From positions 1 through 46,399 of the forward strand of contig QPMI01000110.1 in NCBI GenBank assembly GCA_004431415.1: a DNA stretch of 46,399 nucleotides. Reading direction: 5' to 3'. Position 1 is the first letter of the stretch, and each line of letters starts with the position of its first letter. Source of the stretch: Cyanophora paradoxa CCMP329. Its lineage: Eukaryota > Plantae > Glaucophyta. Both the position numbers and the translations under genes were made by a program. Positions 869-46,146 of this stretch are shown piece after piece. The notes beneath the pieces were generated by a model. That model made no database searches and had not been told where the DNA came from. It worked only from the letters and a program-made list of their open reading frames with translations.

Positions 869-1096
869 GTCAGACCAAGGCCTAGAAAATTTTCCAGGCT
901 GGGGTGAGCTTCCACGTGGGCCCCGGGGTACGTCCGCACCTCACCTGAGCACCACCTGAGCCTCACATGAATCACCTGAGCAACGCCTTCTGTCACATCT
1001 GCGGCTCACCTGCGGCTGGGACCCACTCGATTGCGCGAAGCCCGTTTGCCACTTCTGCAAGGGAATAGCCCAGCTGCAGTACGAGGACTCGGAGGA

Positions 1097-1922
1097 ATGG
1101 CAGACTCTGGCGAAATCGATCTCCTCCTCCGAAACTTTGAGCAGATCCAGCGCTACGGAGCCATCCTTCACGACGAGGGGGACCCAGACTTCGACGCTCC
1201 GGCACCGTACCCCGCCGCCGCCGCCGCCATCGCCAACTCCTACCTCGGGGCCGGAGAGCGCCCCCGCAAGCGCAACCGCCGCACCCAAGGCCCCCAAGGC
1301 GAAGCCGCTGTCCCCTGCGGAAATTGCGGCTCTACCGCCCTCGTTGGTGTTCACCTGGATGGGGATCTGGTTTGCCAAAGCTGCGGTCTGGTCCTGGATC
1401 TTTATTATCCGGACCATCAACCCCTGGCTGTCAGCGAGCTCCACAGCAACTACCTGCGGAAGTACCACGTATCTGAGCGACTTAAGCAGCACTGCCTGGA
1501 GGATTCTCCGGTACCCGAGGACGTGCTGGCAGCTATTGCGAGGCGCATGGCGGGGAAGGAGTGGAGCAAAGACAATATCCGCCAAGTTCTCCGGGCTCTG
1601 AAGCAGCAGAAGTACATCGAGCGCTGGCGCAGATCAAGTGGCGCATCACGGGCGAGCGCCCGCCTCCGATGAGCGCGGAGGACATGGACCGGGTGCAGGA
1701 GATGTTCGCCTGGTGAGGTCCCCTTCAGCATGTTCAAGTCACAGGGCAGGAAGAACATGCTCAACTACAATTACGTATTCAGGCAGATTTTCGTGCTGCT
1801 AGATTTGCCCAGCACCTCCCCTTTTTCCCCTTGCTCAAGAGCAGGCAGAACTCTCGGAGTTAGATTCGATTTGGAACAGGATCTGCGAGTACAACGACTG
1901 GCATTTCTTTCCTACTCTTTAG
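1097..1922 (+). CDS. VLTF3-like viral late transcription factor with Zn ribbon, frameshifted
   Basis: Zn ribbon CGNC...VCQSCG, then YLRKYHVSERLKQ, LKQQKYIERW, GRKNMLNYNYVFRQIFVLL and FPLLKS..LDSIWNRICEYNDWHFFPTL*, which are typical VLTF3 C-terminal motifs. Confidence 0.88.
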
Positions 1923-2254
1923 TGATCGCGGCGGCCTTCCGCTCGAGCGCCTGCTTGATTCCGAAGCTAGCGCTGGTAGCCTTGATTAGCATGTTCGTCT
2001 GCCCGTGTGTGAATCCGAGGATGAACATAATTCCGCCGGTGGGTCGTCGTCGAAGAACTTGAGGTGAGCACGTACTTCGAGAGCAGGCCGAGGGAGAGGC
2101 CGTTGACGGCGACCTGCGCGGCGAGCTCGGCCGCGTGGCCCGCCCTGTTTTCGCCTTCGTGCGAGGAGAAGGCGGCGTCGATGAGGGAGCCGGATGCCAG
2201 GCCGAGGGCGTACTGCACGATAGCCTGGGAGAGCCCTAGGAGCACCTTTGACAT
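1912..2254 (-). CDS. Small hydrophobic, probably membrane/virion protein (frameshifted)
   Basis: ORF 1967..2254 continues in another frame as DPTGGIMFILGFTHGQTNMLIKA...KE*. Hydrophobic helices, upstream AAATTTCC motif. Confidence 0.55.
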
Positions 2255-2289
2255 TTTCCTAGCGCCTCGGAAATTTTTAAGGGGCGCGC

Positions 2290-2634
2290 CTAGGCGTCGG
2301 AGTCCTCGTCCTCGGTCTCTTCCTCCTCCGAGCTCGATTCCGAGGTTGCAAAGTCGTCCGGGTCGCGCACGTAAATAACCCTGTCTCCCTCTTCGTCTGT
2401 CATCTCTTCCGAGCTGGTGTCCTCGCTGCCCAGCGACTCGGCCGCGGCCTCGTCCGCCGCCTCCGACGTGAGGCGCTCCCAGTTAATTCCCAGCGCGTCG
2501 CAGATCCTCTCCAGGGCGCTGCTGACCTCGCCGTCGTTGAAGGGCGAGGAGGGGTCGAGGCTTGACTCCAGAAGGCAGTCGTAGACGATGGACTCGACGC
2601 GGAAGACGGAGGCGATGTGGGCGCTGGGCGACAT
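2290..2634 (-). CDS. Hypothetical protein with acidic C-terminus
   Basis: Clean ATG ORF that fills the gene gap, preceded by the ATTTTTTCTGA motif. Confidence 0.6.
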   Translation of the reverse strand: MSPSAHIASVFRVESIVYDCLLESSLDPSSPFNDGEVSSALERICDALGINWERLTSEAADEAAAESLGSEDTSSEEMTDEEGDRVIYVRDPDDFATSESSSEEEETEDEDSDA

Positions 2635-2660
2635 GCTTACGCACGAAGCCTCAGAAAAAA

Positions 2661-3728
2661 TCAGGCGAGGCCGCGGTGCTTCCTGAAATTATCTATCATG
2701 CCCAGGAGCGTCTTGTCCACCGTGCCGTCGTCCGGACCCACGAGATTTTCTCCGTTGACGGTTTCGCCCTCCCAGTACTCCTTGGATCCGATGCGGAAGG
2801 GGGGCGGCTCCTCGGCCTTGTAGACGTACAGAACGTCCAGAGGGTTCGTAGAGTTGTTGGAAGAATCGATGATAAGGCAGTGGTTATCCTGCGTGTACTT
2901 GTCGAGCAGGTAGTAGAAGGCGCGCTGGGATATGATGTCGCCCCACTCCTTTGCGAGGGCCTCGCGCTGCATCGCCTGCGAGCACTTGAAAATGACAGCC
3001 AGATCAGTATTGGAGCGCAGGACGGGATTGATGCCCTTGGCATACTGCGTCGTGATAAGGGTCATGATTTTGTAGTGGCGCCCCGCCACGAAGAGCTCGT
3101 TGAGGGCCTCGTCGTACCGCAGCCGAGCGTCGGAAATCACGTCGTCGAGCAGCACGAAAAATCGCGGGTCGACGGGATCCTCCTTTCCCGCGAGCACGTC
3201 TTCGGACTTGTTGTGCTGCATGATCGCCTGCTGCCTCCTGAATAAATGGAAGAGCACGCCCGGGTTGTACTTGGGCCAGATGAAGCGCTGGGGTATGTAC
3301 TGCTTCCAGTACCCGTTCAGGCGATCGGTCTGGCTGATCACGATACCCCCCGGGAAGGTGCCGGAGAGGTTGAACATGAGATCGCGGAGGAAGAAGGACT
3401 TGCCCGTGCGCCGCTTGCCGACGCAGACGACGGTGGCGTCGGACTTGACGGTGTTCACGTCGAACCACTTGAGCTCGGGCAGGCAGGCCATGCGCTCGAT
3501 GCCGCCCGTCTTCGAGTTGTCGAGGAAGGCGTTGACCTGCTCGGGCGTGAGCTGCTGGCCGTCCTCTGTCATGCCCATGGCGCAGCTGGCGCCGGCGGCG
3601 GGGGCGGTGCCCGAGCCCGATCCGGTGGCCTGGCCGGCGGGGGCGGGGGCCGGGGCCGCGCCGGCGGGCTGGGCGGCCTGGGGCTTGGCCGCCTTCGGCT
3701 TCTTCGGCTTCTTGGGGTCCTTGGCCAT
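2661..3728 (-). CDS. A32-like (FtsK/HerA superfamily) genome-packaging ATPase
   Basis: Walker A GKRRTGKS, Walker B FVLLDD, GRHYKI arginine motif, TTQY sensor. Likely start MAKDPKKPK at 3728. Confidence 0.93.
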   Translation of the reverse strand: MAKDPKKPKKPKAAKPQAAQPAGAAPAPAPAGQATGSGSGTAPAAGASCAMGMTEDGQQLTPEQVNAFLDNSKTGGIERMACLPELKWFDVNTVKSDATVVCVGKRRTGKSFFLRDLMFNLSGTFPGGIVISQTDRLNGYWKQYIPQRFIWPKYNPGVLFHLFRRQQAIMQHNKSEDVLAGKEDPVDPRFFVLLDDVISDARLRYDEALNELFVAGRHYKIMTLITTQYAKGINPVLRSNTDLAVIFKCSQAMQREALAKEWGDIISQRAFYYLLDKYTQDNHCLIIDSSNNSTNPLDVLYVYKAEEPPPFRIGSKEYWEGETVNGENLVGPDDGTVDKTLLGMIDNFRKHRGLA

Positions 3729-3765
3729 TTTACCCCCTTCATTCAGATTTTCTTGCGACCCTGGA

Positions 3766-4242
3766 ATGAAGATCCTCGGCGTGGATGTGGGGGTCATTAA
3801 TTTCGCCTGGTGCCTCATCGAATTCGATCCGCAGACAAAGGAATCCCAGATTCTCGACTGGCAGAAGATCGCCCTCTTCCCGTCTGCGCGCTGCTGTGGC
3901 CGCCTTGTGGCGCGCCTGGTGGAGGTTACTCGCGGCCATAGCGCCTTCGGCCTTCCCGACCAGATCGCGATCGAGGGCCAGAGGACGGGAATCAATCGCT
4001 GCATCGAGTGCACGCTCCACGCCCTCCTGTACGGGCGTGCGCGGATCGTGAGCCCGCGCGCCATCAAGCACTTCTTCAAGATCTCGAACCCGAGCTACAA
4101 GGAGCGCAAGCGGGGCGCGGTCGACAAGTGCCGCGACCTCGTACCCGCCGAGCTCGCCGACATCGCGGACCGAAACGGCAAGCTCGACGACCTCTGCGAC
4201 GCCTACCTGATCGCCCTCTACGCCGCCCTCAATCCGGTGTGA
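3766..4242 (+). CDS. RuvC-like Holliday junction resolvase (poxvirus A22-like)
   Basis: MKILGVDVGVINFAW, IAIEGQ, YKERKRGAV and KLDDLCDAYLIA give the catalytic D-E-D-D pattern. Confidence 0.9.
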   Translation: MKILGVDVGVINFAWCLIEFDPQTKESQILDWQKIALFPSARCCGRLVARLVEVTRGHSAFGLPDQIAIEGQRTGINRCIECTLHALLYGRARIVSPRAIKHFFKISNPSYKERKRGAVDKCRDLVPAELADIADRNGKLDDLCDAYLIALYAALNPV

Positions 4243-4272
4243 TTCCCGTTGCGATTTCTGGAGGACCCGCAG

Positions 4273-4434
4273 ATGGGATCCTCATGCCGTAAGCCGAGGC
4301 CCCTCTGCTGCGAAATCTGCCGCCTGCCCCAGACCAAGCGCGGCTGGGTGCTCAAGGCGGACGTCTACGTCTGCTGCCCCCGGTGCGCCGTCCGCTACTA
4401 CGCACTTTTTTCTGAAGGCTGTCTACACCCGTAG
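4273..4434 (+). CDS. Small Cys-rich zinc-finger protein
   Basis: CEIC...CPRC, with ATG preceded by ATTTCTG. Confidence 0.5.
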   Translation: MGSSCRKPRPLCCEICRLPQTKRGWVLKADVYVCCPRCAVRYYALFSEGCLHP

Positions 4435-4443
4435 CTAGATCCC

Positions 4444-4839
4444 ATGGAGCACGCCCACTACTGCTTCAAGTGCCGCTCCAACACCAAGCTCGCCAACGTC
4501 GAGGTGCGTACCAGCAAGAACAACCGCCAGGTGGCCGTCGGCTCCTGCACGCAATGCAGCGGCCGAGTCTCGCGCTTCATGCGCCGGGTTCAGGAGGAGG
4601 GGGCCCGGGAGACCAGCCCGCCGCCGCAGCGCCCGCAGGTGCCCGACGCCGCTGGCCCGGCCGCCGGCTCGAGCCAGGCACCGGCAGCCCCTACGGCCCC
4701 GAAGCCCCCCGCGGCGCCCCGGCAGAAGGCCAAGGCGGCCCCCGCGGAGGGCGACCCGAGCCCGCTCGAGGCCCAGCCCAAGCGCCAGCGCGCGCCGAGG
4801 AAGGCGGCGAGCGAGCCCGCGATTGCAATTCAGATGTGA
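4444..4839 (+). CDS. Zn-ribbon protein (DUF5679-like) with Pro/Ala/Lys-rich tail
   Basis: YCFKCR...SKNNR..AVGSCTQCSGRVSRFM pattern. Confidence 0.75.
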   Translation: MEHAHYCFKCRSNTKLANVEVRTSKNNRQVAVGSCTQCSGRVSRFMRRVQEEGARETSPPPQRPQVPDAAGPAAGSSQAPAAPTAPKPPAAPRQKAKAAPAEGDPSPLEAQPKRQRAPRKAASEPAIAIQM

Positions 4840-5084
4840 TTCGGCGGCGCAACTGCCCCTGCCACTGCTTCGTCTGCGACTACCCCCCCACCTGCTTCCC
4901 GGGCCACCTGCAGTTCGGCCACGAGATTTCGGTGGCGCGCGTGGGCGGGCGGGCCCGCCTCGTCTGCAGGCGCTGCGCGCGCGGGCTCTTCGCGGATTTT
5001 CGCAGGATCCGCGACAGGGAGCTCACGGGCAGTATTTCTAAGTCCCTCCCCAAATTGAGAAATGGCCTCCCTGCTGTTCGATAG
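4836..5084 (+). CDS. Small zinc-finger protein (start uncertain)
   Basis: CFVC...VCRRC in the 3' part of ORF 4470..5084. Confidence 0.45.
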   Translation: MIRRRNCPCHCFVCDYPPTCFPGHLQFGHEISVARVGGRARLVCRRCARGLFADFRRIRDRELTGSISKSLPKLRNGLPAVR

Positions 5085-5325
5085 GGACATGTACCAAATG
5101 CAGAACCGATTCGACGGCGTCTACCCCGAGCGCATGCCGCAGGAGCAGTTCCCGCGCCCGCACTGGGCGGACCACCGCACGCACGGCCTGCGCAGGCCCG
5201 GGGCGGGGCAGCTGATGGTGACGCCCGGGGGCGCGCCGGCGGAGCGCGACTGGTCGCCCCTCTGGATTATAGCGGGGATCCTGGTGGGGTACCTCCTCTT
5301 CCGACCCAGTGTAATTTCTCAGTGA
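5062..5325 (+). CDS. Small protein with C-terminal transmembrane helix
   Basis: LWIIAGILVGYLLF, with upstream ATTTCTAAG motif. Confidence 0.65.
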   Translation: MASLLFDRDMYQMQNRFDGVYPERMPQEQFPRPHWADHRTHGLRRPGAGQLMVTPGGAPAERDWSPLWIIAGILVGYLLFRPSVISQ

Positions 5326-5337
5326 CCCCGTACCCCG

Positions 5338-5676
5338 ATGTCTCGATCTATCCCTTATTGGGCCCCAATCGATACGCAAATTGAGATGCTGCGCGCTCGC
5401 ATGCAGAAGCTTACGCTCGAAGAGGATCCCACGGATGTACCCGAGATCAAGGCGGGGTTGGCCACGCTGCCGACGGATATCGTCGAGAACATTCGCGATT
5501 GGGTGTACAGACTGCAGGACGAGGTCCGTGCACGGCTCTGGCAAATCGTGATGGGGCAGAGGGCCGCGGCCTACCGTAGCTTCGACGACCAGAGGGACGC
5601 GGCCATGCGCAGGTGGGAGAGGCAGTTCCCCGAGACGTACGGGGGTGCCAACCCATATTTTTCTGGTGATGGGTAA
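5338..5676 (+). CDS. Hypothetical helical protein
   Basis: Clean ORF in a co-oriented array, with the upstream motif. Confidence 0.65.
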   Translation: MSRSIPYWAPIDTQIEMLRARMQKLTLEEDPTDVPEIKAGLATLPTDIVENIRDWVYRLQDEVRARLWQIVMGQRAAAYRSFDDQRDAAMRRWERQFPETYGGANPYFSGDG

Positions 5677-5678
5677 AC

Positions 5679-5957
5679 ATGCCGGAGGCACAAAAGAAGC
5701 CCGCGAAAAAGGCGCCCACGAACGGGCAGGAGCGGCCCACCAAGGCCGAGGTGAAGGAGGCGAAGGAGAAGCTGAAGGGGCCGCCCGAATTTCCTAAGGG
5801 GCCGAAGCCGCTGTACGAGGACGTCTCGCCCGGCGAAATATTCGTGGCGATGCGCCCGACGAAGCAGGGGAAGAAGGGGGCCGATAAGAAGGACGGGAAG
5901 GAAGACAAGGCCAAGACCGATAAAATTTCAAAGCCAGCCCCTAAGAAGAGCAAATGA
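5679..5957 (+). CDS. Lys-rich basic protein (possible DNA-condensing/core protein)
   Basis: Very high K content, upstream motif, ATGA overlap with the next gene. Confidence 0.6.
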   Translation: MPEAQKKPAKKAPTNGQERPTKAEVKEAKEKLKGPPEFPKGPKPLYEDVSPGEIFVAMRPTKQGKKGADKKDGKEDKAKTDKISKPAPKKSK

Positions 5958-7852
5958 GGGGGCTCGCCTCGCGTTTCGCGCCGCGCAACGTGCTGGCGGT
6001 CCCGGGGGGCGGGGACTCGCACATCACGCCCTTTGAGAGCGACAAGTACGCGCACTTTCAGCAGATGGCCAAAACCGCGCTGCACCGCTCCGACGGGATG
6101 CGCGTCGAGGATAGGGCGAAAACCGACAAGCTCGCAGAGGTGGAGGCGCAGGCCATCGCCAACGCCTACTACATCAACAAATTCAAGGAGATGGAGTCCG
6201 GGCTGGACGAGGAGTACGAGGAGGGCTTCCGCTCCTGGCTGATGGGCCAGTCCGCCTTTGCCATCGACGCCGTGACTCAAACGAACCGAAAGGCGCGGGG
6301 CGCGGGCGCGTGCGACGTGGACGGTAAGAATTTGACCATGCTCCCAGGCGTGCGCGATTTTTGCAAGTCGAAGGAAGACCAGATCACAGAGTTCTTGAAA
6401 CGCAAAAAGCGACTCGAGACCCTCGGGCCCATGAACTTGGATGACGCGTACTACTACTACAAGTACATCGTGAACGGCGAGGAGTTCAAACCGACGAGCA
6501 TTTATGCGCGCGAAAACCTACCGGAGGAGAAGAAGAGCTACGCGGATAGGAACACCTCGCAGCCGTTCACCCAGGCCGAGCCACCCGGATCGGACGACGA
6601 GGGCCCGGGCCCCGACGAGGGCCGGCTGAGGGACACGCGCGCCGAGATGCGGCGCCTGACGGCCGCGATGACCAAGCTCGTTACGATCGCCGAGAGCAAG
6701 GAGCAGGAGGCGCGGATCAGAAAGAGGGACAACGCGGCCATCGATGAAAACGGGGCCATCGCTCTGAGGCCGAATGCGCGGAGGGGCGCCAAGGAGGCGC
6801 TGATCCAGAAGGCGCTGCCGGGTAGGCGCGAACGGCCCGCAGAAGGCGACGGGGGCGGTGGCGGTGGCGGCGGGGGCGGTGGCGGCGGGGGCGGTGGCGG
6901 CGGGGGCGGTGGCGGCGGGGGCGGTGGCGGCGAACCACAGCCGCCGCCCCCTCCTAGTGCCCCTTCAACCCCGGCTCCATCGCCCGAAGCTTCCCCTCCG
7001 GCCGCCCCGGGCACATCCGTGGGAGCGCCCGCGGCCGGTCCTTCCGATGCCGAGATGGCGACGGTAGAGGCCGCGGTGAGGGGGGCGCTGGCTGCCGTGG
7101 GCGTTCCGACTGCGCCGCCGGCGACGTACGCCGCATCGTCCGCGAAGCCGAAAGACCGCAAGTTGAAGAAGGGCTTAGACGCGGACGAATCCCGGGAGGC
7201 GCGGCTGGGGTCGCTGGATGCGCTGCGTAACGCAAAAGGGGCGGCTCTCCTCGCCAAGGCGCGCAGACAGCTGATCACCGACGTGGCGGCCGATGCGGCC
7301 CCCGAAAGCGAGCTCGCGACCGTTTCGGAGTTCATCCAGACGGAGCGGCTGCAGGCGGACGTGATGGAGGCAGAGGCGACGCTTGAGGTACGTAAACGGG
7401 CACTCGAGGAGGCGGCCGAGCGCACACGCAGGCGCCGGTGGGACATTGGCCCCACGGGAGAGGTGATGCCGGCACCCGCCGCAGGGCCCAGTGCGCCCCC
7501 CAGCGTGCCCCCTCCCGCCCGCAAACAGCGATGGGACGTCGGCCCCGATGCAGCTCAGATTTCGGCGTTTCTCGCGGGCAACCCTGACGCGGAGGAGCGG
7601 CGCAGGTGGTTTGAGGATCAAAAGAGCGCGAAGATCCAGGGTGCCTACAGCAAGGCGCTCAAAGACATACAGAGGCGCTTCGGAAACAATGACGAGACCC
7701 TCGGGAGCTTCGCGGAAATTGCGATTTCCCGGTACCACACGGCCAAGGGCGTGCCCGGGCAGATTATTGCCAACGTGCCTGCGCAGCTGCTACGAGATTA
7801 TTTCTCGGGGGACGGACCCGACATCGATTTTTGGAGGTTTGTGGACGCATAG
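5954..7852 (+). CDS. Large hypothetical protein: globular N-domain, poly-Gly/Pro linker, two RWD motifs
   Basis: 632-aa intact ORF directly upstream of MCP, containing RRRRWDIGP and RKQRWDVGP. Confidence 0.75.
   Translation: MRGLASRFAPRNVLAVPGGGDSHITPFESDKYAHFQQMAKTALHRSDGMRVEDRAKTDKLAEVEAQAIANAYYINKFKEMESGLDEEYEEGFRSWLMGQSAFAIDAVTQTNRKARGAGACDVDGKNLTMLPGVRDFCKSKEDQITEFLKRKKRLETLGPMNLDDAYYYYKYIVNGEEFKPTSIYARENLPEEKKSYADRNTSQPFTQAEPPGSDDEGPGPDEGRLRDTRAEMRRLTAAMTKLVTIAESKEQEARIRKRDNAAIDENGAIALRPNARRGAKEALIQKALPGRRERPAEGDGGGGGGGGGGGGGGGGGGGGGGGGGGGEPQPPPPPSAPSTPAPSPEASPPAAPGTSVGAPAAGPSDAEMATVEAAVRGALAAVGVPTAPPATYAASSAKPKDRKLKKGLDADESREARLGSLDALRNAKGAALLAKARRQLITDVAADAAPESELATVSEFIQTERLQADVMEAEATLEVRKRALEEAAERTRRRRWDIGPTGEVMPAPAAGPSAPPSVPPPARKQRWDVGPDAAQISAFLAGNPDAEERRRWFEDQKSAKIQGAYSKALKDIQRRFGNNDETLGSFAEIAISRYHTAKGVPGQIIANVPAQLLRDYFSGDGPDIDFWRFVDA
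6851..6931 (+). repeat. GGC/GGT/GGG poly-glycine coding repeat
   Basis: (GGGGGCGGTGGCGGC)n-type 15-bp periodic run. Confidence 0.9.
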
Positions 7853-7863
7853 GCGCCCATCCA

Positions 7864-7876
7864 CAAAATTTTCTCA
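7864..7876 (+). promoter_or_regulatory. Representative copy of the ATTTTC(T) upstream motif (before MCP)
   Basis: The motif recurs about 10-40 nt upstream of more than 25 start codons on the coding strand. Confidence 0.75.
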
Positions 7877-7891
7877 ACGCACCCCTAAACC

Positions 7892-9260: not shown

Positions 9261-9339
9261 ATTGCTTGTTAGCCAGGGTGTGCTTGGTAGGCCGATGTGA
9301 ACCAATAAATTTTCCCACTGGGATCCTAACCGAGGCACG

Positions 9340-10464
9340 ATGACGAAGGGCCACTCTATGATGGACATTGGGGAGGGCTCTAAGAAGCAGCGCCAGGCGC
9401 TGAAGAACGACCTGAAGGCCGACATGGACGGCATCGTGAACAAGTTCCTTCCGGGCACGATCATGCCCGAGGTGCCCGTCGTAGATGGAACGAAGGCAGA
9501 CGTCTACACGCCCGAGGACAAGGCGCGGGGCCTGGGGCTCAGCGGGGGGGAAACGAAGACCCTGCCCGCGATGAAGTACACGCCCTCGATGGAGAAGCTG
9601 ATGCGGATGGGCATCCGACAGCAGCTGCAGAACGCGAACCCCGGTCGCACGATCAACGAGGAGGACGTGGAGAACGCGTTCAGCCTGCGGAAGGAAATCA
9701 TGATTCGCGATTTCGACCAGTGGGCGATGACGGCCTTCGACCTGAAGCAGCCGGGCGTCGCCAAAATGCTCGAGGAATATTACCCCGAGCTGCTGGAGCG
9801 AATTACGAACATGATCGAGCAGGATATCGAAATTCAGCGCTTCGACAAGTACCAGAAGGTTTTCTTCCCGATGAACTACGATGATCTCGTCATGAAGTGG
9901 GCGCGCGAGCGCGGCTGGATCAAGACGATGGAAGAGATCGAGAAGGAGAACCTGCTCGGGCCGGCCGGCCGCTACGGGCAGACGGAGGCGAACCCCCAGG
10001 GGCTGCGCGCGGGCTACACCCCCGATCTATCGCCCATGTTCAACGCGCAGACGGCCAACATCAGCAGCGCCGTCAACAAGCCCTACGGCCGCAACGACGT
10101 GGACTTCAGCCGGGGCAATCCGTTTGGGGCGATGCTCCTCGATCAGCCGGGGACGCGCGGCCCGGCCCTGCCGACGGCCATGCCTTACGCGGACCAGAAC
10201 CTGCTGCCCCGCGTCGTCAACCCGCTCCCTGCGCTGCAGGGCAATCAACTTGCCACGCCGTTCCAGAAAGGACGCATGCTAGAGCTCCGCGCTAAAGGAA
10301 CGGTGGCAGGTATGTCCGCTGCATCGCAGACTGCAATTCAGACAGCCTTCCAGTCCATCGTCCGGAACACGGAGAACAACCAGATTGCCATGCTTGCGGA
10401 AACGAACGCCCGGAAGGCGGAGATGTTCGACCAAGCAGCCCAGGCGCTCCGACTCGGTCAGTAA
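9340..10464 (+). CDS. Hypothetical protein, probably virion structural
   Basis: 374-aa intact ORF directly downstream of MCP, with the upstream motif. Confidence 0.75.
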   Translation: MTKGHSMMDIGEGSKKQRQALKNDLKADMDGIVNKFLPGTIMPEVPVVDGTKADVYTPEDKARGLGLSGGETKTLPAMKYTPSMEKLMRMGIRQQLQNANPGRTINEEDVENAFSLRKEIMIRDFDQWAMTAFDLKQPGVAKMLEEYYPELLERITNMIEQDIEIQRFDKYQKVFFPMNYDDLVMKWARERGWIKTMEEIEKENLLGPAGRYGQTEANPQGLRAGYTPDLSPMFNAQTANISSAVNKPYGRNDVDFSRGNPFGAMLLDQPGTRGPALPTAMPYADQNLLPRVVNPLPALQGNQLATPFQKGRMLELRAKGTVAGMSAASQTAIQTAFQSIVRNTENNQIAMLAETNARKAEMFDQAAQALRLGQ

Positions 10465-10486
10465 TTTCTGAGGCCCACGCGAGCAC

Positions 10487-10816
10487 ATGGCTGCGACGGA
10501 GGCGACGCTGGGCGAGCAGATCGAGGCGCGCTGGGGCCGCTTCCTCGACCTGCTGGAGCCGGAGGCCAAGGAGCCCGGGGTGCGGGCGCAGATCCAGTCG
10601 CTGCGCGGCATAGGGGCCACGGCGGTCATCGTTCTGTTCAGGAGGCACATCAACGCGGAGGCGGAATTGATCAAGGCGAAGGACGACTCGGTTTTCGAGA
10701 GGCTGCCGCAGGAGTACGCCTCGGCCGTGCGCTCGCTATTCTACGGCAGCGGGCCCGAGCTGCGCGAAAAGCTCTGGCTTTACATCGAGCTCTTCGTCGA
10801 GCTGACCTCGGAGTGA
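10487..10816 (+). CDS. Small helical protein (C-terminal KLWLYIELFVEL, resembling small NCLDV conserved proteins)
   Basis: Intact ORF with upstream GTAATTTCTGA. Confidence 0.65.
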   Translation: MAATEATLGEQIEARWGRFLDLLEPEAKEPGVRAQIQSLRGIGATAVIVLFRRHINAEAELIKAKDDSVFERLPQEYASAVRSLFYGSGPELREKLWLYIELFVELTSE

Positions 10817-10858
10817 AAAATATTTCTAAGGGCAGGCGTAAAGGATGGACCCTCGGCG

Positions 10859-11645: not shown

Positions 11646-11698
11646 GTGTAAAAGCTTGTAATCAATTGCACCAAAAATTCACAATTTATTCGTCCGAG

Positions 11699-12478: not shown

Positions 12479-12500
12479 GTTGTCTGAGCTTAGTGTGCGA

Positions 12501-12869
12501 TCAGCCTAGCGCTAGAAAATATTTAAAGGGCGCCCCACCTGACTTCAGCTGAGCGCTCGGGTGATTCAGGTAAAACACGTGTTCAATTCGTCTCACTGGG
12601 GGGGGAAGGGCTTCGATCGCGGCTACGCGAATATTCGAGAGTCTAAATCTGGCGCTGGGGCAGGCGACGGCGTACAGGGTGATCTCGTTCTTGGCGGGAT
12701 TGAGCATGATGTGCTGGAAGCAGTCGCCCTTGCGGCACTCCAGCGAGATGTTGCGCAGCAGCCTGCAGTAGTTGAAGCAGATCTCGCCGTTCTCGTCCAG
12801 ATCCTCTTCCATGGCCTCGTACTCGAAGATGCCGAAGGTCAGGCAGCAGGTGAAGTACTTGGGGCGCAC
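12501..12869 (-). CDS. Hypothetical protein
   Basis: ORF of plausible composition, start codon uncertain. Confidence 0.45.
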   Translation of the reverse strand: MRPKYFTCCLTFGIFEYEAMEEDLDENGEICFNYCRLLRNISLECRKGDCFQHIMLNPAKNEITLYAVACPSARFRLSNIRVAAIEALPPPVRRIEHVFYLNHPSAQLKSGGAPFKYFLALG

Positions 12870-13451: not shown

Positions 13452-13555
13452 GTTGCTTGCTGGTTGCGTTGAGAGAGATTGAGAGTGTGAGGGAACGCCG
13501 CGTGCCGCGTGCTTATAGAGGCCGTTCAGGTGAGGTTCAGGTGAGCGCTCACCTG

Positions 13556-13680: not shown

Positions 13681-13711
13681 GGCGCCATTTTCTGATGCTA
13701 GTCTACCCACC

Positions 13712-17429: not shown

Positions 17430-17430
17430 C

Positions 17431-17773: not shown

Positions 17774-17825
17774 ACGTTCGCAATCTCCGGACGCCTCCCA
17801 CAATTTTCCAAGGTACCCAGCAAGC

Positions 17826-18111
17826 ATGGACTTTACTGACTGCGCAGGTATCAAGCAGGAGCCTGAGGACCTTCTCACCGCCGCCGCCTCGGCGCCCAAG
17901 CAGCGCCGCCGCCGTGGGCCCAAGTCCTCTGCTCCGAGCCGAGATCCTGGCGGCTCCGGCGCGCGGGCCGGAGACCGTGGACCTGACGCTGGAGGAGCCG
18001 GCGCGCGGCCCGCCGCGCCTGCTGATCCTTGCGGCGGCGGCGGCCGCGCTCTACTACGCCGCCCGGCGCCTGGGCCCGCAGCTCTCGGGCCTGGTCCGGA
18101 ACCTTTTCTAA
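17826..18111 (+). CDS. Small protein with basic patch and C-terminal TM helix (frameshifted)
   Basis: MDFTDCAGIKQEPE...KQRRRRG joined to ETVDLT...LLILAAAAAALYYAA, with upstream CAATTTTCCA. Confidence 0.55.
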
Positions 18112-18121
18112 GTCTTGCCCA

Positions 18122-18463: not shown

Positions 18464-18511
18464 TTGCTAGTGATTTTCTGGTCCCTCTTCTAGCCCTTCT
18501 ACCAGCAAAGA

Positions 18512-19212: not shown

Positions 19213-19539
19213 CTAGCGTTTAGAAAATAGCGCGCGAGCCTCGAGCACCAGGAGACCCGCCACAACCGCTGCGGCGATGACAACGGCCACCTTGAGCCAG
19301 TGCCAGAAGCGCTCGGCCCCGTCCGTCAGCGCGCGGCCCGCCTTGCCCGGTGCGGTGAGCGCGGAGCCCAGGGCGCCCGCCGCAATGTCGGCCCACGCGC
19401 CTCCGTCGCCGCGCAGGACGTTCTCTCGGTTCTTCGTCTCCACCGTGGCGCCAATCGCCGCGTTGATCTCGCCGAACTGCAGGCGCGGCTGGCCCTTGGG
19501 GCCGAAGGTCTTCGTGAGCAGCGCATCGAGCCAGCTCAT
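19213..19539 (-). CDS. Small membrane protein
   Basis: C-terminal TM segment VAVVIAAAVVAGLLVL. Confidence 0.65.
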   Translation of the reverse strand: MSWLDALLTKTFGPKGQPRLQFGEINAAIGATVETKNRENVLRGDGGAWADIAAGALGSALTAPGKAGRALTDGAERFWHWLKVAVVIAAAVVAGLLVLEARALFSKR

Positions 19540-19576
19540 CCTTGGCTAGCTTCCAACCGGGGTTTCGAAAAACTAT

Positions 19577-20052: not shown

Positions 20053-20146
20053 CTTCGAACGTGTAACGAGAATGAAGAAAATTTAAAAGGGAACGCCAAC
20101 GGACTCGGAACTCGGAAAAGGGGAGGGGAGAATGAACTTTGAAAAG

Positions 20147-20334: not shown

Positions 20335-20381
20335 CGCGGACCGAATTGAGGGAGGGTTGAGAAAAAATACCGCCTCGGGCC

Positions 20382-25282: not shown

Positions 25283-25372
25283 GCAGTCCAGACGTCGACT
25301 ATAGCTAGCCAACAGACGTCGACTAGCCTAGTAGATCTAGAATTTTCCAAGCCTAGCTATAGAGAGACGACC

Positions 25373-29887: not shown

Positions 29888-29939
29888 AGCTCGTAGCCTC
29901 GCAGTAGCGTTTAGAATTTCTCGTTGTGTGCAATTGCAA

Positions 29940-30625: not shown

Positions 30626-30680
30626 CGTGGAGGTGGACGTGATAGGGGGTACGGGTAGATATTCTCAGCGAGCCGCGAGC

Positions 30681-32990: not shown

Positions 32991-33063
32991 TTTGGGCCGG
33001 GGTAGAGAAAATAAATGCGAAAAGGCCGAAAAGTGCGTTTTTCACGCGTGAAATCGATCGAAA

Positions 33064-33112: not shown

Positions 33113-33170
33113 AAGAGTTAAAATCAGAGTCTGGACCCAAAAGCGGGGAAATTTTCGGACGGGGAGAAAA

Positions 33171-35577: not shown

Positions 35578-35609
35578 CCCGGTCGAACATTTTCTGAGCC
35601 TAGGGCAAA

Positions 35610-35973: not shown

Positions 35974-37439
35974 TGGTGTGAATCTTAGTGTCGTACTCGC
36001 GACCGATCGTGGCCCAGGATACGTAGTTTGTAGACGTGCCGTTTGCAGGGTTGGTGGTGGCAGTCGTGTAGTCGGCCTCTGCTTCTATCAACTCGGCCAT
36101 GAGGGTAGAACCCACGACCATTCCAGAGGTAGGCATACCCGCAATGTTGTTGTACAATTTGAAAGTGAATTTCGTGAAGAGGAGCCGGGCCAGAGCTGGC
36201 ACGGGGATTCGAGGAATCATAGGAAAACGAGGTACCCGAGACTCCACCCGTGGTGGCATTCGTCATCATTTCCTTTGCGGTCATCTTCCAGAGATTGTAC
36301 ATCTCAAAGGGACGGCCTGCGTGGTCTTGTGAGTGGCATCGATGGCGGTGCCGTCTATGTGGGTCTTGGAGCCGCCGTTAAAGGTGCGAGTGAGGGCGGT
36401 GTTCGCAGTGAACTTGAGCTCGAGCACTCGGATTGCGGGCCGATCCGGCACGGAGGGCTCTATCTTTTTCAGGAGGCCAGAGAGCCAGAGGGCCTCCGCC
36501 TCGTCCGCGCTCACACCCGAGTCGATGTCAAAGTACACGTACACGGAGCAGGAGGCGGGATTCTCGAAATCGTTGGAGGTGACGCGCAGCATGATCGGAT
36601 TCTGGATCTTCACGGTCAGCATGGAGGCGTAGCTGCCGTCCCAGACCACGGAATCCGTCCCGGCGTTGGCCGCTGCGACATCGCCGTAGAAATCGGGGTG
36701 GGCAGCACGGTCTTCACGATGGTGCTCGAGGTGGAAGGCATTTTGCGACCTCGGATGAGAAAGATTATCCGTAGAAGAGGGCGATGTCGTTGCCGATGCC
36801 GAGAGGCGGGCCGCGGGCTGCACGGCGTCGGAGCCGGTGGTGTGCCTGTAGGAAATCGAGCACTCGCGCAGCTCCGCGCAGAGGCTGGCGCCCGTGCTGA
36901 AGTGGGCTGGTCGGCGGCGTAGGGCAGGGGAAGACCTGGAACTTGAAGAAGGTGAAGGGGAAGCGGGGTAGCCCGGAAGCGCGCGGGTTGCCGCCCGTGT
37001 AGAGGGCTCCCAGGGTGGCGGGACTCGGATTGAATTTCGTGAAGAGCACGTCGCCCTTGAGCGTACCCCGCGCAGTAAACGCACCCGTACCCGGCAGCGC
37101 GGTATCGGTGTACTGGTTCACGGTGGGGCCGTACCCCGTCTCCCTGAACTTAACCTCGAGACAGCGCAGGACGTTGGCCGTGGCCGTGGCGGGCGCCACC
37201 CTTTTCACGAGGCCGGATTCGTGGAGCAGCTCAATGACCTCTGCGCTGAGAGTGGACGGGTCGAAGAAGAGCTGGTAGGAGTAGATCTTGGGCGTGGCGT
37301 AGGCGTTCTGAACGGCTTGAATCACGACGGGATTCTGCAGGAAGACGTCGACGTAGCTGCCGGAGGGGATGCGCGCGAAGTTTGAGTTGTTGTTGCCGGC
37401 GTCGAGGGAGTTGAGAGTCTGGTACCAGTTGGAAGTCAT
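35963..37439 (-). CDS. Beta-rich probable structural protein (minor capsid candidate), frameshifted
   Basis: ORFs 36765..37439, 36281..37084 and 35963..36259 form a consecutive T/N/S/V-rich chain. Confidence 0.5.
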
Positions 37440-37477
37440 TTACCCGGGGCAGATATTTTTTCGGATCGTAGAGGAAA

Positions 37478-40819: not shown

Positions 40820-40843
40820 TTTTGGATTGCATCAGAAAATCGA

Positions 40844-43800
40844 TTACATAAGCAGCTTGCCGATCGCGGTCCAGTGAATGAAAAGCTGGACAATTTGGGT
40901 GGGTGTGACCGTCATTCTGGGCTGGAATCTCACTTTAACTGTAAAGCCAGTATGACTCACCGCCGTGACGTTGGTCCCGTAGAAATCGACATCCGTGCTG
41001 CCGCCAGGATTGATGTCGAACGAGGGGGTTACGTTAATAACCGGCGTCGGGTTTGCTGGGGTCCCCAATCCGCCTCCAGTGTCGTACGCCTGTCCGAATG
41101 TAATGTTGAACGTCACCGTGTATGTTGAATTGATGTTAAACTCCGTGTACGCAGCGTACGAGTGGAAGGACGTGCCGTGCGTTATGTACGCATCCATGTT
41201 CACGTTTCTGTGCCCGTGGCCGGTGAGCGAGTACTCTGCGTGACTGTGCGTAGAGGGGGGGAAGGTGAGAGGCTTCCCCGTAACTTGAGTTTCCCAGTCC
41301 ACGTTGTGGCTGTGAGTCGAGGGGGGGAAGGTGGCTGGCCTGCCCGTAACTTGGGTTTCCCAGTCCACGGTGATGTTCGACAAGTCGGGGGCCGTCCAGT
41401 CGCTGATTTCGGAGAGGGTGTGCCTGTGACTGGCGTGGGGGTATGTACTCGGCTTCCCCGTGATGCTATCCCACGCCCACGTCGTTGGCTTTCCGCTCAG
41501 ATCCGCATAAGCACCCGTGTGCGCCACCGTCGCCAGCCAGGGCTGCACGACGCCAACGGTGCTGACGGGCTGGTTGACGGGGTACTCGAGCAGCGATGCG
41601 TTCACTTCCGTTGGCTTCCCCTTCAGATCCGCGTACTCGCCGTATGGGCCACGGCCGCCAGCTGGGGCTGCACGACGCCCACGGTGCTGATGGCCTGGCT
41701 GGGCCCGAGGGCACGTGCCACTCGTAGTTCTGCGCCGCAAACACGGGCTGGCCGGGCGAGGGTGCCCAGTACTCGACGCCTTGGCCACCTCTTTCCTGTA
41801 CGGCGCCGCCGGCCTGTCCATCAATTTATCGACGTACGCCTTGGGTACCAGCCAGTTGGCCTTGGGACTCTGCGAATTAATCCGTTGTCTATGAAGGCCC
41901 CGTAATTCCTGAAGCCTCGGCCTCCCACCAATCCTGCATGCGGAAGGTACCCGGAATCTCGAGGCGCGAGTTGGCGTCGGCCAGGCGGGCCACCTGCGCC
42001 CTCCGTTCGACGAGACGCCGAGTGTCGGATGGCCGAGCCGAATTCGCGCCTTAGGGCCTCGATGTGATTGATCCTGTTGAGGCCTCCTGGTAGACGGCAA
42101 TTAACACGCGCTTCCTGTTCTTGGCCTCCGCCGTCACCATTTCCTTCAGATCCAGCATCACCTGCTTTAGGCCGATGTTCAGGGCCAGCAGCCCATCTGC
42201 ATTGTTTCCGTGAGCTGCGATAGGTAAAGCACCGTCGCGCGATCGATTTCGAGCAGAGTCTTCTGGTCCTTGGGGTACGGTAATCGTTGATTGCGTTGTC
42301 AAGCGCGTGGATGAACTTCTGCAGGCTTTCGGGCTGCTTTTGGTTTCCCGCATCCATCTTCAGCATTTCGATCTCCATGATGAGTCTCATTGCCCCGTTG
42401 TCGCCGCCCCTTCCGGTGAAAACGCCCATGGGGTTGTCGCCTAACTCACCCTCGATTCGCCGAATTCGCATCCTCAGTTGCTCGGCCTCGGAGCCAAAGG
42501 TCTCGATGCCCCACTCGACCATGTCCTGTGCGATCTTACCAATGAACTGAATCGTATCGGCCGCCCAGTTGATGGGGTACATAAAAAAGTTTTTGATGAT
42601 GGTACCCACGTCCCTCTTGTTCAGGATGTCCACGAAGACGCCGGCGATCATTCCTGCGAGAATCGACAGGCCCATGCCACCCACGAACCCGATTTTCATT
42701 CCGGGCTTCAGGAATTGGAGACGGAGGTGAGCCCCTGCTGAATGCCAAACGAGCCCACGGTCATGATCATGCTGTCGCGGAAGTTGTCCATGAACTGCGC
42801 TTGCGTGATCTGTCCGCTCTCCAGGGCTTGGTACGACGAGAAGCAGCCCGCCAGCGCCGTCAGCCGAGGCGGCCGCCCCGCCCCAGTCGTCTGCCGAACT
42901 CGAGCCCGTACCCCGAGCCCGGCGCCCACCAGGTCGATGCCCGCCCTGAAAGAGGTCGGCCATGCGAAGGGCATGCCGTCGTTGTTCGCCGTACCGCCGC
43001 CGAGAAGAGGGTCTCTGCGCTGAGGGCTCCTTTGCCACCCCGGCCGCCTTGCCCTCGGGCGCCCCAGGTAGGCGTCGCGCTGCTCTTTGGTGGTGAATCG
43101 CTCGAGGTCGAAATCGGCAAGGGCGTCGGCGGTGGCGCGTTCCAGTCGCCGTAGGCATGAGGCGTGCGCAGAATAACGTCCGAGTCGCCCATCACGCGCC
43201 TGTCGAGCGTCTGGAATACGCCCTCGGAGGGCAGGCGAGCTGTGCCCGGGCGCATTTCCTCCACGGAAACGTCGTCCCTCTCCGCGAGCGTGATATCGTC
43301 CGGGCTGGCCGAGCCCACGCCGCGCCCTCGTCGGCGTAGGCCCTTCCTCCTTTTTAACAGTTGATTGGCCTCCCGTTTCAATGCTTGGTACTCTGTCTCT
43401 ACCTTGGTCTTCTTGCCTCTTCCTCTGCCGCCTTGCGCTCTGCGATCTTCCGCCTCTGCTCTTCTATCTCGGCGTTGCGTCTCGCCGCGTCTCCTTGGCT
43501 TGCTGCTTCGCTCTTCGATCACCCTGTTTGCGTACTCCTTGTCCGCTTGGGCCTTTCTGTAGCGCTCCTCGATCTGACTCTTGGCCTCGTCTCCTCTCTT
43601 CTTAGATCGCCTATGAACGCCGTTGTATCTATGTAAAGCTTGTATTTGGCGGTGATGCTCACGTTTAAAGGCCTCCAGATCGCGCACCATGGCGTCGTAC
43701 TGTGCAAGCCCCTCGCTGGAATGACGGCTCTTCGCTTTTCCCAAAACTTGCTCAGCTCTCCACGTAATTGATCATGCCGACGTACGCGCTCTGTGCGCCG

Positions 43801-46120
43801 ATGCTCACCGTTTTCGGATTGGCTCGCAGCTCTGCCACAAACTTTCCCTTTTGCATCCGGTACAGTGACCATTCCAGGCTCCCCGCCATAGGCTCACTTC
43901 CGTCCGCAGTTCGCGGTGCATCTCCTCCACGTCGCCGTATGCTATCCAGATGGCATCGCTGATGGCCTCTGAACAGCCTGACGCTCAAAGTTTTTCCACT
44001 TCTCATCGGCCATCTTTCTCCTCAGTTCTTCGGCGTCTTTCTGACCCTTCCGTCAGCTGATCCATAACGTAGCTAAAGTCGCGCATGTTCTCTTCCATGG
44101 CGCGGACCCTGTCCCCTGATGCTTTTCCATCTGCGAGTTTTTTGAGCTCCGAGCGGTAAAAATCCATCTGCGCCCCCCTGAACGTCTCCATCGTCGCTTA
44201 CGCTCCGCTACCTTCGGCTCCTCCAGCCGTGCAAATTCCTCGTCTGATGCAGTTTGCATTGCCTTCAGTCGTTCCTTTCTGTCTTGGCAGCTGCCTCCTC
44301 GTCCGCCCTGCGCGCTGCTCTAACGCGTCGAAGAGGGCCCTCTGATCCTCGAGCGTGAGGCCAATGAGCTCTTCCACCTGGTCGCTCCTACCCAGCCGCG
44401 CGAAGGCAGCCTCTCGGCGGCCGGCCTCGGATCGGGCCTCGGCGTCGTCTGCGTCTCGCCGTCCCATGGCGAGCGTGCTCTGCGGTGGCCGCGTACTTGA
44501 GCAGCCTCTGTGCCAGCCCGTCCGCGTTGGCCTTGAATTTTTTCGACTGCTGGTCGCGCGCTCGGCGGCCTCCTTTAAATTTTTGATTTCCTCCCGGAGC
44601 CTGTTCGCCTCCTGCACCGCCCCCGTTTGCAGCTCTCCTGCCTTTCTCCTCGTTTCTCTTCCTCTTCCAGCAGCTGCCTTCTCGTTTCTGCCTCCTTTTC
44701 CAATTTCTTCTTCCTATCCTCGATCTCTTTCCTCTGCGCCTCAAGCAGCTCGGTGCCTGCGGTCAGCGCTTCAATTTCCTGCAGCTTTTTCGCCTTGCGG
44801 CTTCCCTTTGCTCGTTATCTCTTCAGCTCCTCCTCGGCATCGAGTATCATTTTTGTGCGCTCTTCCGCGACCTGGCGCTCTGCCGACCTTAGCGCCGTGA
44901 GGCGCTCTCTTCTTCCTTTGCGCGTCTGTCATCAGCTTGTTCGCTTCCGCCTTCTTCTCCGCGACCTCTGTCATTTCCTTGTCTTTCAGCTCGCTCCATT
45001 GCTTCTTTTCGTTCTCGAGTTTGTAGTACTCGCGCTGCGCGTCCTCGGTATCGAATTTAATGGGGGGTCTCGCGTTCAGCTCGTCGATTTGCCTCACGAA
45101 CCCCTTCCGATCCTTGTAGTATTGATGCCGCCTACGATGAGGCGCCCCCGAAGATGGCCGTTGAAGTGGCGAGGCTGCTACCTTATCCATGCCCTCCCCG
45201 CCTGAGCCGCCGCCACCCGAGCCGCTGCTGCCCCGCCCCCGCCCACTGGCGTGCCGCTGGAGCCCCCTCCGCCCCCGTGCCTGTACCCCCACCCCGTGCC
45301 TGTACCCCCACCCCGGTGCCTGTACCCCCACCCCCGTGCCTGTACCCCCACCTCCCGGCTTCCACCACCGTACCCCCACCCGGAATCGCACCCGGCACCT
45401 TGGGCCGCCGATGATGTCGTCGTACAGGTGGCGGTGCGCCCAGTCCGTGATGTCGCCTTCACGTGCGGGTGCTTGACGAGGCGTACCTCTCGTCGTGGAA
45501 GTGGTCCTTCAGCGCCCAGTTCTGCGTCTTCGCCAGTCCGAGCGATCGGGGAGCACGTCGGGCGCCGTCGGGATGCGGCCCCCGCCGTCGTCTCCGGCGT
45601 CTCGCCCGTCCTGTCGGCGCTCAGGGCGCGGATGTTGACTTGAAGTGGTCGAACCACGCGAAAAACTCCTCCCTGTCGCGCCTGTACTGCTCGGGCTCCA
45701 TGCTCGGCAGCGCCTGTCGGCTCCAGTAGATGTGGCGCAATGGGCCGCGATGCGCTCGAGGGCGTTGTACCCGGCTCACGTCCCCTCTGCGCCCTTTAGA
45801 GTCAGTTTTACGAGGTTGAGGGTGGCATCCTTTGCGGTGACGGAGTTTGCGATTTTCACGTCGGCCGCCCTCTTAATAATGTTCCAGTCCACGCCCGTCT
45901 CGGTCGTGACCCCCAGAGCCCTTGATAATTGCGGTGAGGTCCCGTAGTCGCCAGCGAGCCTATGGTCGTCAGGAAATCGTTGTACGTGGATCCCTCCGCA
46001 GCCGAATCTCGTCCGCGTAAATTCCCCTCACGCTCAGGCTCCGTCTATCGCGAAGGCGCCGTTCAGCACCTCGTCGGGATTCGGGATGGCCATGCGCCAG
46101 GGGTCTGCAAGCATCGACAT
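40844..46120 (-). CDS. Very large (~1700 aa if single) coiled-coil protein ending in phage tail-fibre repeats and an H-lectin/gp53-like tip; heavily frameshifted, may be two genes
   Basis: ATG 46120 follows TTTTTCTC. Long E/K/R coiled-coil segments, hydrophobic helices near 42600-42750, WETQVTGKP.TFPPSTHSH repeats, and terminal GFTVK...FIHWTAIGK. Confidence 0.5.
45274..45352. repeat. Four ~18-bp tandem units (CCCGTGCCTGTACCCCCA), coding GGGTGT-like linker on the minus strand
   Basis: Seen directly. Confidence 0.85.
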
Positions 46121-46146
46121 TTCTGTTCGCGAGAGAGAAAAATTAA

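Follow-up and report, generated by a model that had tools for sequence, protein, structure and literature searches.

We analyzed a 46.4-kb stretch of DNA from Cyanophora paradoxa CCMP329 (contig QPMI01000110.1, positions 1 to 46,399; GC 62%), hereafter the window, together with 47 related viral loci, and found a short core motif, WWWTTCYRA, just upstream of most of the core viral genes in both. The motif is very probably a promoter of some kind. On balance, we think it probable that it belongs to a two-part promoter of the giant-virus late type, read by the host RNA polymerase II together with the viral transcription factor VLTF3. The core would be the upstream half of this promoter.

The core motif in the window

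A sequence-only reading of the window had described an ATTTTC word before most start codons, with 28 sites listed. All 28 carry a W-TTT(T)-C word on the strand given, with the ATG 19 to 42 nt past the first base of the word. With a scoring matrix trained only on the 47 related loci (main cut-off, 6 bits; weaker cut-off, 3.5 bits), 24 of them reached 6 bits and none fell below 3.8 bits. The word is thus real, but the exact hexamer was found at just 15 of the 28 sites and at 16 of 42 curated starts, and it is therefore too narrow as a consensus and gives way to WWWTTCYRA.

We classed the 973 ATGs of the window by a coding model alone, with the motif unseen. Among start-like ATGs, 26 of 57 had WTTTC 8 to 45 nt upstream, as did 4 of 16 ambiguous ones, 8 of 135 internal in-frame ones, and 58 of the 765 others; the reverse complement of the word preceded 8, 2, 7, and 57 ATGs of the same classes. 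The matrix found a core at 20/57 start-like, 4/135 internal, and 30/765 other ATGs, the start-like class being diluted by second ATGs and frameshift artefacts. For the curated list of 42 starts, one per gene, a core was present at 31 (6 bits) or 37 (3.5 bits); the list was partly picked with the motif in view, so these are upper estimates. Random positions gave 95/3,000 at 6 bits, and 1,000 shuffles of the regions upstream of the 42 starts gave a mean of 2.3 and a maximum of 8. A core on the opposite strand was found at 2 of the 30 nondivergent curated starts. The raw matrix count over the whole window was mildly raised (101 versus 68 ± 10 in shuffles), the signal being positional. About 12 coding units, mainly in the minus-strand block at 41.9 to 46.0 kb and at 31.4 to 35.0 kb, do not appear in the curated list, as we could not assign their starts. 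The claim that the motif precedes most start codons therefore holds for the core viral genes but is not shown for these two blocks.

Conservation in related viral loci

A search with an ATPase alignment yielded 160 loci at 37 to 54% identity, of which 47 of at least 8 kb were kept after dereplication, with 777 genes of at least 90 amino acids (aa). The results cover gamadvirus-like loci and the window; scans toward Yaraviridae gave only distant loci (23 to 32% identity), which were left out. Motif discovery on the upstream regions against shuffles, as the sequence-only reading had proposed, was run on these relatives. Expectation maximization from random seeds recovered WWWTTCYRA in 73% of the 777 upstream regions, with its first base peaking 23 nt before the ATG and a log-likelihood of 1,319, compared with 22 to 23 for shuffled sequences. 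The C is invariant, the preceding T is found in 98%, and the final A in 84%. At 6 bits, the core preceded 516 of the 777 starts and 86 of 4,034 internal ATGs. In 15 core gene families searched from −70 to +15, it was present before 428 of 464 genes and at 210 of 3,298 internal ATGs, showing the conservation in related genomes that the sequence-only reading had proposed to test. WTTCYRA was enriched 19-fold, versus 1.8-fold for TCTA alone, and the 516 cores ended most often in TGA (174), TAA/TAG (155), or CAA (90).

Two families, F5 (SSB-like) and F8, carry the core farther out, 46 to 67 nt upstream at family-fixed distances, at least one of them inside the upstream gene. An apparent early/late split based on these families (F5, 4/33; F8, 0/30) disappeared with the wider search, the core merely lying further upstream. 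No second motif was enriched in the 146 core-less upstream regions of the relatives, and TCACCTGA was absent from them.

A second element and the predicted start site

When 588 sites of the relatives were anchored on the invariant C, TA peaked at +12 (120 sites) and +13 (80), compared with about 40 elsewhere; permutation reached this in 0/1,000 trials for the relatives and 1/1,000 for the window. More broadly, YA was found at +12 or +13 in 334 of the 588 sites (shuffle mean, 165; maximum, 194) and in 19 of 37 window sites (shuffle mean, 8.8; maximum, 18), and its rate exceeded the shuffles in 45 of the 47 loci. The TA peak was present in every bin of C-to-ATG distance, and distances below 14 nt were rare. 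Transcription would accordingly be predicted to start at the A of the YA, 12 to 13 nt past the C, and the messages would bear leaders of about 0 to 15 nt. The sequence-only reading had called the motif a promoter/initiator. Its position, strand, presence at divergent starts, conservation, and mimivirus late-type spacing sustain the first term but not the second, as the word is likelier the upstream half, with the start at the YA.

The same core and spacing were found in giant viruses. From 80 fetched loci with Megaviricetes-type capsid genes, we kept 55, with 50 recognizable capsid genes and 820 starts, as an outgroup. Upstream of the capsid genes stands AAATTWTTTTCT, followed by a spacer and TATA; this bipartite pattern was present in 46 of the 50, the C and TATA being 12 nt apart in 38 of these, and was very uniform across the loci (L161 to L240) at 20 to 56% GC. 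The mriyavirus matrix scored at least 6 bits in 29 of the 50 upstream regions (shuffle mean, 7), and anchoring on the mriyavirus core alone placed TATA at +12 in 26 of the 50.

Terminator and RNA-level explanations

Instead of being a promoter, the motif could mark the 3′ end of the gene upstream (terminator or polyadenylation signal) or simply result from stop codons and AT-rich spacers. It often overlaps the end of the preceding gene, as the sequence-only reading had noted: in 115 of 260 tandem cases of the relatives, the stop codon of the gene upstream starts no earlier than the YRA. Some sites read TTTTTCT, resembling the poxvirus early terminator, T5NT, and a match was found at 20 to 29 of 172 apparent convergent ends. 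However, besides 260 of 337 tandem starts, the core precedes 123 of 182 divergent ones, at which there is no gene end to mark. The YRA forms the upstream stop in just 11 of the 260 tandem cases, and cores inside coding ends avoid the frame that would turn TRA into a stop (5/160). Composition shuffles gave 16 cores versus 309 observed. The convergent matches mostly correspond to a missed gene: directly after the ATPase gene, the relatives (e.g., L144, L069, and L119) have a conserved gene of 113 to 130 aa, overlapping the 3′ end of VLTF3 on the strand opposite to it, which accounts for 35 of 36 such junctions. With a wide search, 52 of the 172 convergent ends matched, and an open reading frame (ORF) of at least 30 aa followed in 43 of the 52. 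In the window, 7 of 12 divergent starts carried a core at 6 bits and 10 of 12 at 3.5 bits, compared with 0 of 8 convergent ends. The terminator reading is thus largely refuted, and we give it almost no weight.

The 113- to 130-aa gene is easily missed by gene callers; its homolog in the window is likely the frame at 1967-2254 (−).

An RNA-level signal, namely, a U-rich element of the 5′ leader or a splice acceptor (cis or trans) ahead of the ATG, is very unlikely. The T-run is often followed by NAG, and the first AG starts 2 nt past the T in 118 of 516 sites; however, the position of the AG is scattered, 64 of the 516 sites have no AG before the ATG, and the commonest core endings are TGA, TAA, and CAA. 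A start site downstream of the core would agree with the constant place of the YA (+12/+13) and with the minimum of 14 nt to the ATG. In addition, opposed cores overlap by their W-runs, which would require mutually antisense leaders. Ninety-five such pairs, with their Cs 6 to 10 nt apart, were found in the relatives; both flanks bear a called gene in 27 of them and neither flank does in 31, many of these last having uncalled ORFs. This overlap of the two W-rich halves allows a single element to be shared by both genes of a divergent pair, and the window has three of these bidirectional elements, with two cores within about 16 bp (882-897, 3743-3755, and 29911-29923).

Possible readers of the putative promoter

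No DNA or RNA polymerase was matched among the 231 window frames of at least 95 aa, although the window may not hold the whole element. Since the virus has no RNA polymerase gene that we could find, the probable reader would be the nuclear RNA polymerase II of the host, directed by the viral VLTF3, a putatively TFIIB-like factor, and by VLTF2 in those viruses that have it. Mriyaviruses lack DNA and RNA polymerases and are inferred to be nuclear (PMC11253617), and poxvirus late transcription requires A1, A2, and G8 and involves host TBP (PMC8400408). The dependence of the motif on VLTF3, proposed in the sequence-only reading, is plausible. A structural model of a relative's VLTF3 (pLDDT 72.9) suggests a zinc ribbon and a cyclin-type helical domain. 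The ribbon has a weak likeness to TFIIB/Brf2 (E 0.04), and the helical domain matches Brf2/TFIIB at Z 4.3 to 4.4 (root mean square deviation, 3.4 to 3.7 over some 100 residues), no better than it matches cyclins and pocket proteins.

Several points weigh against a late-type promoter read through VLTF3. The main difficulty is that the VLTF3 gene of the relatives itself lies behind a core in 40 of 43 cases, as do the SSB-like and nuclease genes; therefore, the motif is not late specific, and something must start VLTF3 first. The fold match of VLTF3 is below the tool's reliable level, and Foldseek gave no match for it at E 0.001. The YA is weak in the VLTF3 (3/29) and RuvC (6/25) families. No VLTF2 was matched in the window with the candidate families of the relatives, F16 and F17. 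Since the related loci share ancestry, their counts are not independent. Among the giant viruses, 293 noncapsid genes with a proximal TATA showed a flat profile with no TCT peak at 12, and TTCTRA was merely 1.6-fold enriched over the 820 starts. In the literature, such a motif was not reported for two relatives that lack an RNA polymerase: yaravirus is described as having no enriched intergenic motif (10.1101/2020.01.28.923185), and in medusavirus, the motifs reported are early or unassociated, with none associated with late genes (PMC8557863).

The main rival is that the virus behaves like a virophage and that the same promoter is read by the late machinery of a co-infecting helper giant virus, which would switch on integrated copies; we consider this possible but rather improbable. 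Late promoters are common to virophages and their giant viruses (PMC8547959 and PMC11464507), and ATTTCTWAWA and ATTTTCRAWWKAA, late-gene motifs of two Mesomimiviridae bins, match those of virophages, including mavirus (supplementary file 6 of PMC11502894). The motif stands before nearly every gene, VLTF3 and the replication genes included, and the element is multi-copy in a eukaryote proteome, which would also suit a helper. However, these viruses retain a VLTF3 of their own, their TATA half is reduced to YA (TATA, 18/291; bipartite pattern, 8/777 versus 4.3 expected), and the early motif AAAATTGA is absent (0/777 upstream regions of the relatives). To our knowledge, virophages keep no VLTF3, and we know of no helper in the isolation of yaravirus. 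That virus was isolated in Acanthamoeba culture (PMC11253617). If a helper were needed, the current picture of mriyaviruses as autonomous nuclear viruses would change.

It is unlikely that the host basal machinery alone reads the motif as a host-type core element near the start site, with VLTF3 unneeded for recognition. Such a mechanism would explain the first transcription of VLTF3, and YA serves as a generic start dinucleotide for Pol II. The oomycete FPR element is MWTTTNC. That string, which fits AATTTTC, occurs in PMC3599244. However, the oomycete initiator YCAYTYY precedes the core in just 10 of 516 sites, and the core with its spacing is also present in giant viruses, from a class whose members have a polymerase of their own for transcription. 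Furthermore, a class that the host might read is seen elsewhere in the window, at core-less starts. The curated starts without a core at 3.5 bits are 967 (+), 12871, 13451, and 41821 (−), and 38774 (+). The VLTF3 frame begins at 1097, not 967, and no core lies within 45 nt of 1097 either. CACCTGA repeats stand upstream of three of the core-less starts, at 941-979 (+), 12937-12944 (−), and 13512-13556, accounting for 7 of the 13 copies in the window, and the start at 13451 also has a TATA-like CTATAAG about 65 nt upstream. These starts possibly represent a host-read early promoter class, which was not seen in the relatives.

Returning to a promoter read through VLTF3, a broader proposal, which we hold to be somewhat less likely than not but worth stating, is that the giant-virus late core predates the giant viruses and is read by VLTF3 whatever polymerase follows; mriyaviruses would have retained the ancestral core with its spacing, use host Pol II, and tune VLTF3 through a conserved overlapping out-of-frame ORF placed first on its message. 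That a lineage placed near the phylum's base, with VLTF3 but without a polymerase, has this very core and 12-nt spacing narrows the candidates for the factor that recognizes the late promoter of mimiviruses and their virophages. Were the core ancestral and VLTF3-read, a virus of 40 kb that has one or two transcription factors would be the minimal system for late-promoter recognition across Nucleocytoviricota.

Start codons, missed genes, and an ORF overlapping VLTF3

The expectation that the motif predicts true starts and unannotated small genes was supported in the relatives: in 14 families, almost every gene has an in-frame ATG as the first one past the core. In a group whose genes mostly lack annotation, the motif is of practical use for fixing start codons and finding missed genes. 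VLTF3 departs from this pattern: in 33 of 41 relatives, the first ATG past its core belongs to the +1 frame and most often lies 5 nt ahead of the ATG of VLTF3 itself. This +1 frame was open for at least 120 codons in 43 of 43 relatives, versus 7.1 expected from synonymous redrawing; some control families also exceeded expectation, but far less (13/31 versus 3.5, and 9/28 versus 0.8). The overlapping ORF lies across the 5′ half of the VLTF3 gene in L091 (6483-6899, −) and in 42 further loci and encodes about 128 to 176 aa, mostly 132 to 144; the ESM Atlas gave only matches of 0.80 or less for it. Since its protein is poorly conserved and unrecognized, the ORF may serve to hold back VLTF3 translation or may be an overprinted gene. 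In the window, the VLTF3-like gene (1097..1919, +), with a zinc ribbon and a Pox_VLTF3 domain, is split over three frames in the assembly, with indels relative to short-read contigs. The open frame over it in the +1 frame (960..1601, +) is homologous to the overlapping ORF of the relatives (E 2e-5) and has the same end.

Core sites along the window

The cores listed here were scored with the relatives-trained matrix. At the left end, ATTTTCTAG (882..890, −; ATG 868) precedes an HUH-like endonuclease gene that is in pieces; the core stands back-to-back with ATTTTCCAG (889..897, +), which faces the VLTF3 locus, with its first ATG at 967 (78 nt on) and the VLTF3-frame ATG at 1097. Two minus-strand cores follow, AATTTCCGA (2267..2275; ATG 2254) and TTTTTCTGA (2651..2659; ATG 2634). 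The A32 packaging ATPase (ATG 3728) has AAAATCTGA (3743..3751, −), which overlaps ATTTTCTTG (3747..3755, +) of the A22/RuvC resolvase (ATG 3766); the former was missed in the sequence-only reading, as were the cores at 18103, 29911, and 30659.

A run of plus-strand cores extends from there. GATTTCTGG (4253..4261) precedes a 53-aa Cys-rich ORF (ATG 4273), and TTTTTCTGA (4407..4415) precedes a DUF5679 gene (ATG 4444). After TATTTCTAA (5033..5041; ATG 5062), three cores lie within the end of the preceding ORF, namely, AATTTCTCA (5313..5321; ATG 5338), TTTTTCTGG (5658..5666; ATG 5679), and AATTTCAAA (5924..5932; ATG 5954, 632 aa). The major capsid protein gene (ATG 7892) follows ATTTTCTCA (7868..7876), with TA at +13 from the C, as it is for ATTTTCCCA (9309..9317; ATG 9340) and for TATTTCTAA (10821..10829) of a DUF5767 gene (ATG 10845); between these last two lies AATTTCTGA (10463..10471; ATG 10487). 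AATAAA occurs soon past stop codons at 9303-9308 (+), where it overlaps the core of the next gene, and just beyond 11699 (−); it was not enriched at convergent ends of the relatives (0/186).

On the minus strand, ATTTTCTAG (12512..12520; ATG 12478) precedes a homolog of family F5, SSB-like by inference. The plus-strand cores ATTTTCTGA (13687..13695; ATG 13712; TA at +12), ATTTTCCAA (17803..17811; ATG 17826), CTTTTCTAA (18103..18111; ATG 18122), and ATTTTCTGG (18473..18481; ATG 18512; TA at +13) are followed by a minus-strand group: ATTTTCTAA (19220..19228; ATG 19196; TA at +12), the weaker TTTTTCGAA (19564..19572; ATG 19539; 5.8 bits), the weak ATTTTCTTC (20074..20082; ATG 20052; 3.8 bits), and TTTTTCTCA (20358..20366; ATG 20334). 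The helicase-like gene (ATG 25373) has ATTTTCCAA (25342..25350, +), with TATA at +11; its duplicate at 22863-22871 was counted once with it.

In the right part of the window, a YqaJ/PDDEXK nuclease (ATG 29887) has AAATTCTAA (29911..29919, −), overlapping AATTTCTCG (29915..29923, +; ATG 29940), and ATATTCTCA (30659..30667, +; ATG 30681) lies beyond. The weaker ATTTTCTCT (33004..33012, −; ATG 32990; 4.6 bits) is followed by ATTTTCGGA (33151..33159, +; ATG 33171), ATTTTCTGA (35589..35597, +) of an HNH gene (ATG 35610), and TCTTTCTCA (36756..36764, −; ATG 36741). The weak AATATCTGC (37449..37457, −; ATG 37439; 3.7 bits) is opposed to TTTTTCGGA (37457..37465, +; 5.7 bits) of an fn3-domain gene (ATG 37478). 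The last three, all on the minus strand, are ATTTTCTGA (40832..40840; ATG 40819), a possible core, AATTCCTGA (42708..42716; 6.7 bits), with an uncertain start at ATG 42699, and the weak TTTTTCTCT (46134..46142; ATG 46120; 3.8 bits).

Identity and gene content of the window

Judged by its genes, the window is a mriyavirus-like element. Pfam matches were found for Capsid_N, Pox_A32, Pox_VLTF3, Pox_A22, and YqaJ, so that with family profiles the Mriyaviricetes genes for MCP, A32 ATPase, VLTF3, RuvC/A22, and PDDEXK nuclease are present. Further genes have DUF5767, DUF5679, HNH, and fn3 domains, and the helicase was recognized by a weak Herpes_ori_bp match. A candidate HUH endonuclease has an HAH motif in the frame 175-509 (−) and homologs in two related loci, with no Pfam match. 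The gene set and size of the window and the related loci resemble those of the proposed family Gamadviridae of Mriyaviricetes, with genomes of 35 to 45 kb (PMC11253617). According to the same source, VLTF2 is present in all Gamadviridae and some Yaraviridae. The window differs from Gamadviridae in its highly divergent capsid and in its helicase, SF2-type in appearance, as reported there for a subset of Yaraviridae.

The window is most likely a multi-copy endogenous element, because the close capsid homologs (all 13) and most of the best ATPase homologs (8 of 10) are EukProt entries in one naming style; mriyavirus regions have been described in a Glaucocystophyceae assembly (10.1101/2025.04.19.649669). 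The capsid protein as the sole query found no locus among viral contigs, the helicase had no match among longer proteins, and no tRNA genes were found in the window. Many window genes are frameshifted. Short-read contigs differ from positions 1-14400 by several gaps and no substitutions (e.g., 2,404 nt with 0 other letters and 7 gaps); therefore, most breaks there are long-read errors.

A near-identical 2.48-kb tandem duplication (21570-24050/24047-26470) covers the 5′ part of the helicase gene, its copies differing mainly by 1-base indels. A 3.4-kb noncoding block (14375-17790), which may represent the element termini or an insertion, has inverted arms (14436-14526/17431-17521 and 13561-13662/17672-17772) and a 300-nt direct repeat. 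Tandem repeats of about 89 nt at 28587-29268, and also at 22754-22803 and 25233-25282, have an AT-rich near-palindromic center with imperfect inverted arms and are a candidate replication origin. Pyrimidine-rich, intron-acceptor-like tracts ending in CAG border the 5′ edges of coding segments at about 33950-33981 (+), 32280-32310 (−), and 21805-21835 (−); if they are acceptors, they would indicate host splicing or host-derived genes.

Comparison with known viral promoters

The late consensus of Megamimivirinae, quoted in PMC11464507 as [AT]8T[AC]TN4[AT]5[AG]TA[TG]A, is similar in its W-rich run ending in T-C-T, the TA at +12/+13 from the C, and its place just before the start codon. Over 588 sites of the relatives and 37 of the window, the AT-run and T[AC]T matched at 76 to 100% for positions −5 to +1 and 51 to 78% for −9 to −6. 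However, the W-run here is 5 rather than 8 long, an extra RA follows TCY, the spacer is not AT-rich, and TATA is reduced to YA; the full second block, [AT]5[AG]TA[TG]A, is not conserved, its positions matching at 11 to 65%. Usage also differs: the mimivirus late motif is found in 24.2% of late genes (PMC5294985), whereas here the core precedes about 90% of the core genes, in a virus without an RNA polymerase, and by gene identity it is not confined to structural genes. We suggest that the mriyavirus element would work like the Megamimivirinae late promoter but is no member of its consensus.

CroV, mavirus, and ChlorV have TCTA in an AT-rich context (PMC5294985, PMC8547959, and PMC13196603), although PMC13196603 gives TCTA as common only to CroV and ChlorV. 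The resemblance lies in TCTA, within TTCTAA, as the commonest form of the core center, a similar distance to the ATG, and, as in mavirus, presence at nearly all genes. In contrast, TCTG and TCCA are as common here as TCTA, the downstream flank is not AT-rich, and a TCTA tetramer AT-flanked on both sides is not characteristic of the cores in the relatives. For PgV, the Gezel-14T preprint reports that no middle or late motif was detected.

The post-replicative promoters of poxviruses and asfarviruses (T-rich core, short spacer, and TAAAT/TATA initiator; PMC5294985) likewise consist of two parts, with the start element roughly one helical turn past the T-rich core; their leaders are very short, as is predicted here, and the genomes encode VLTF2/VLTF3-family factors. 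Their sequence differs, and those viruses use their own polymerase in the cytoplasm. PMC11253617 does not use the word promoter, and we found no account of a mriyavirus promoter in the literature searched (including PMC12344493, PMC6401483, and PMC11998528; subscription journals and the supplements of PMC11253617 and the preprints lay outside the search). As far as that search extends, this promoter-like element is a variant of the known giant-virus late promoter that is new for Mriyaviricetes.

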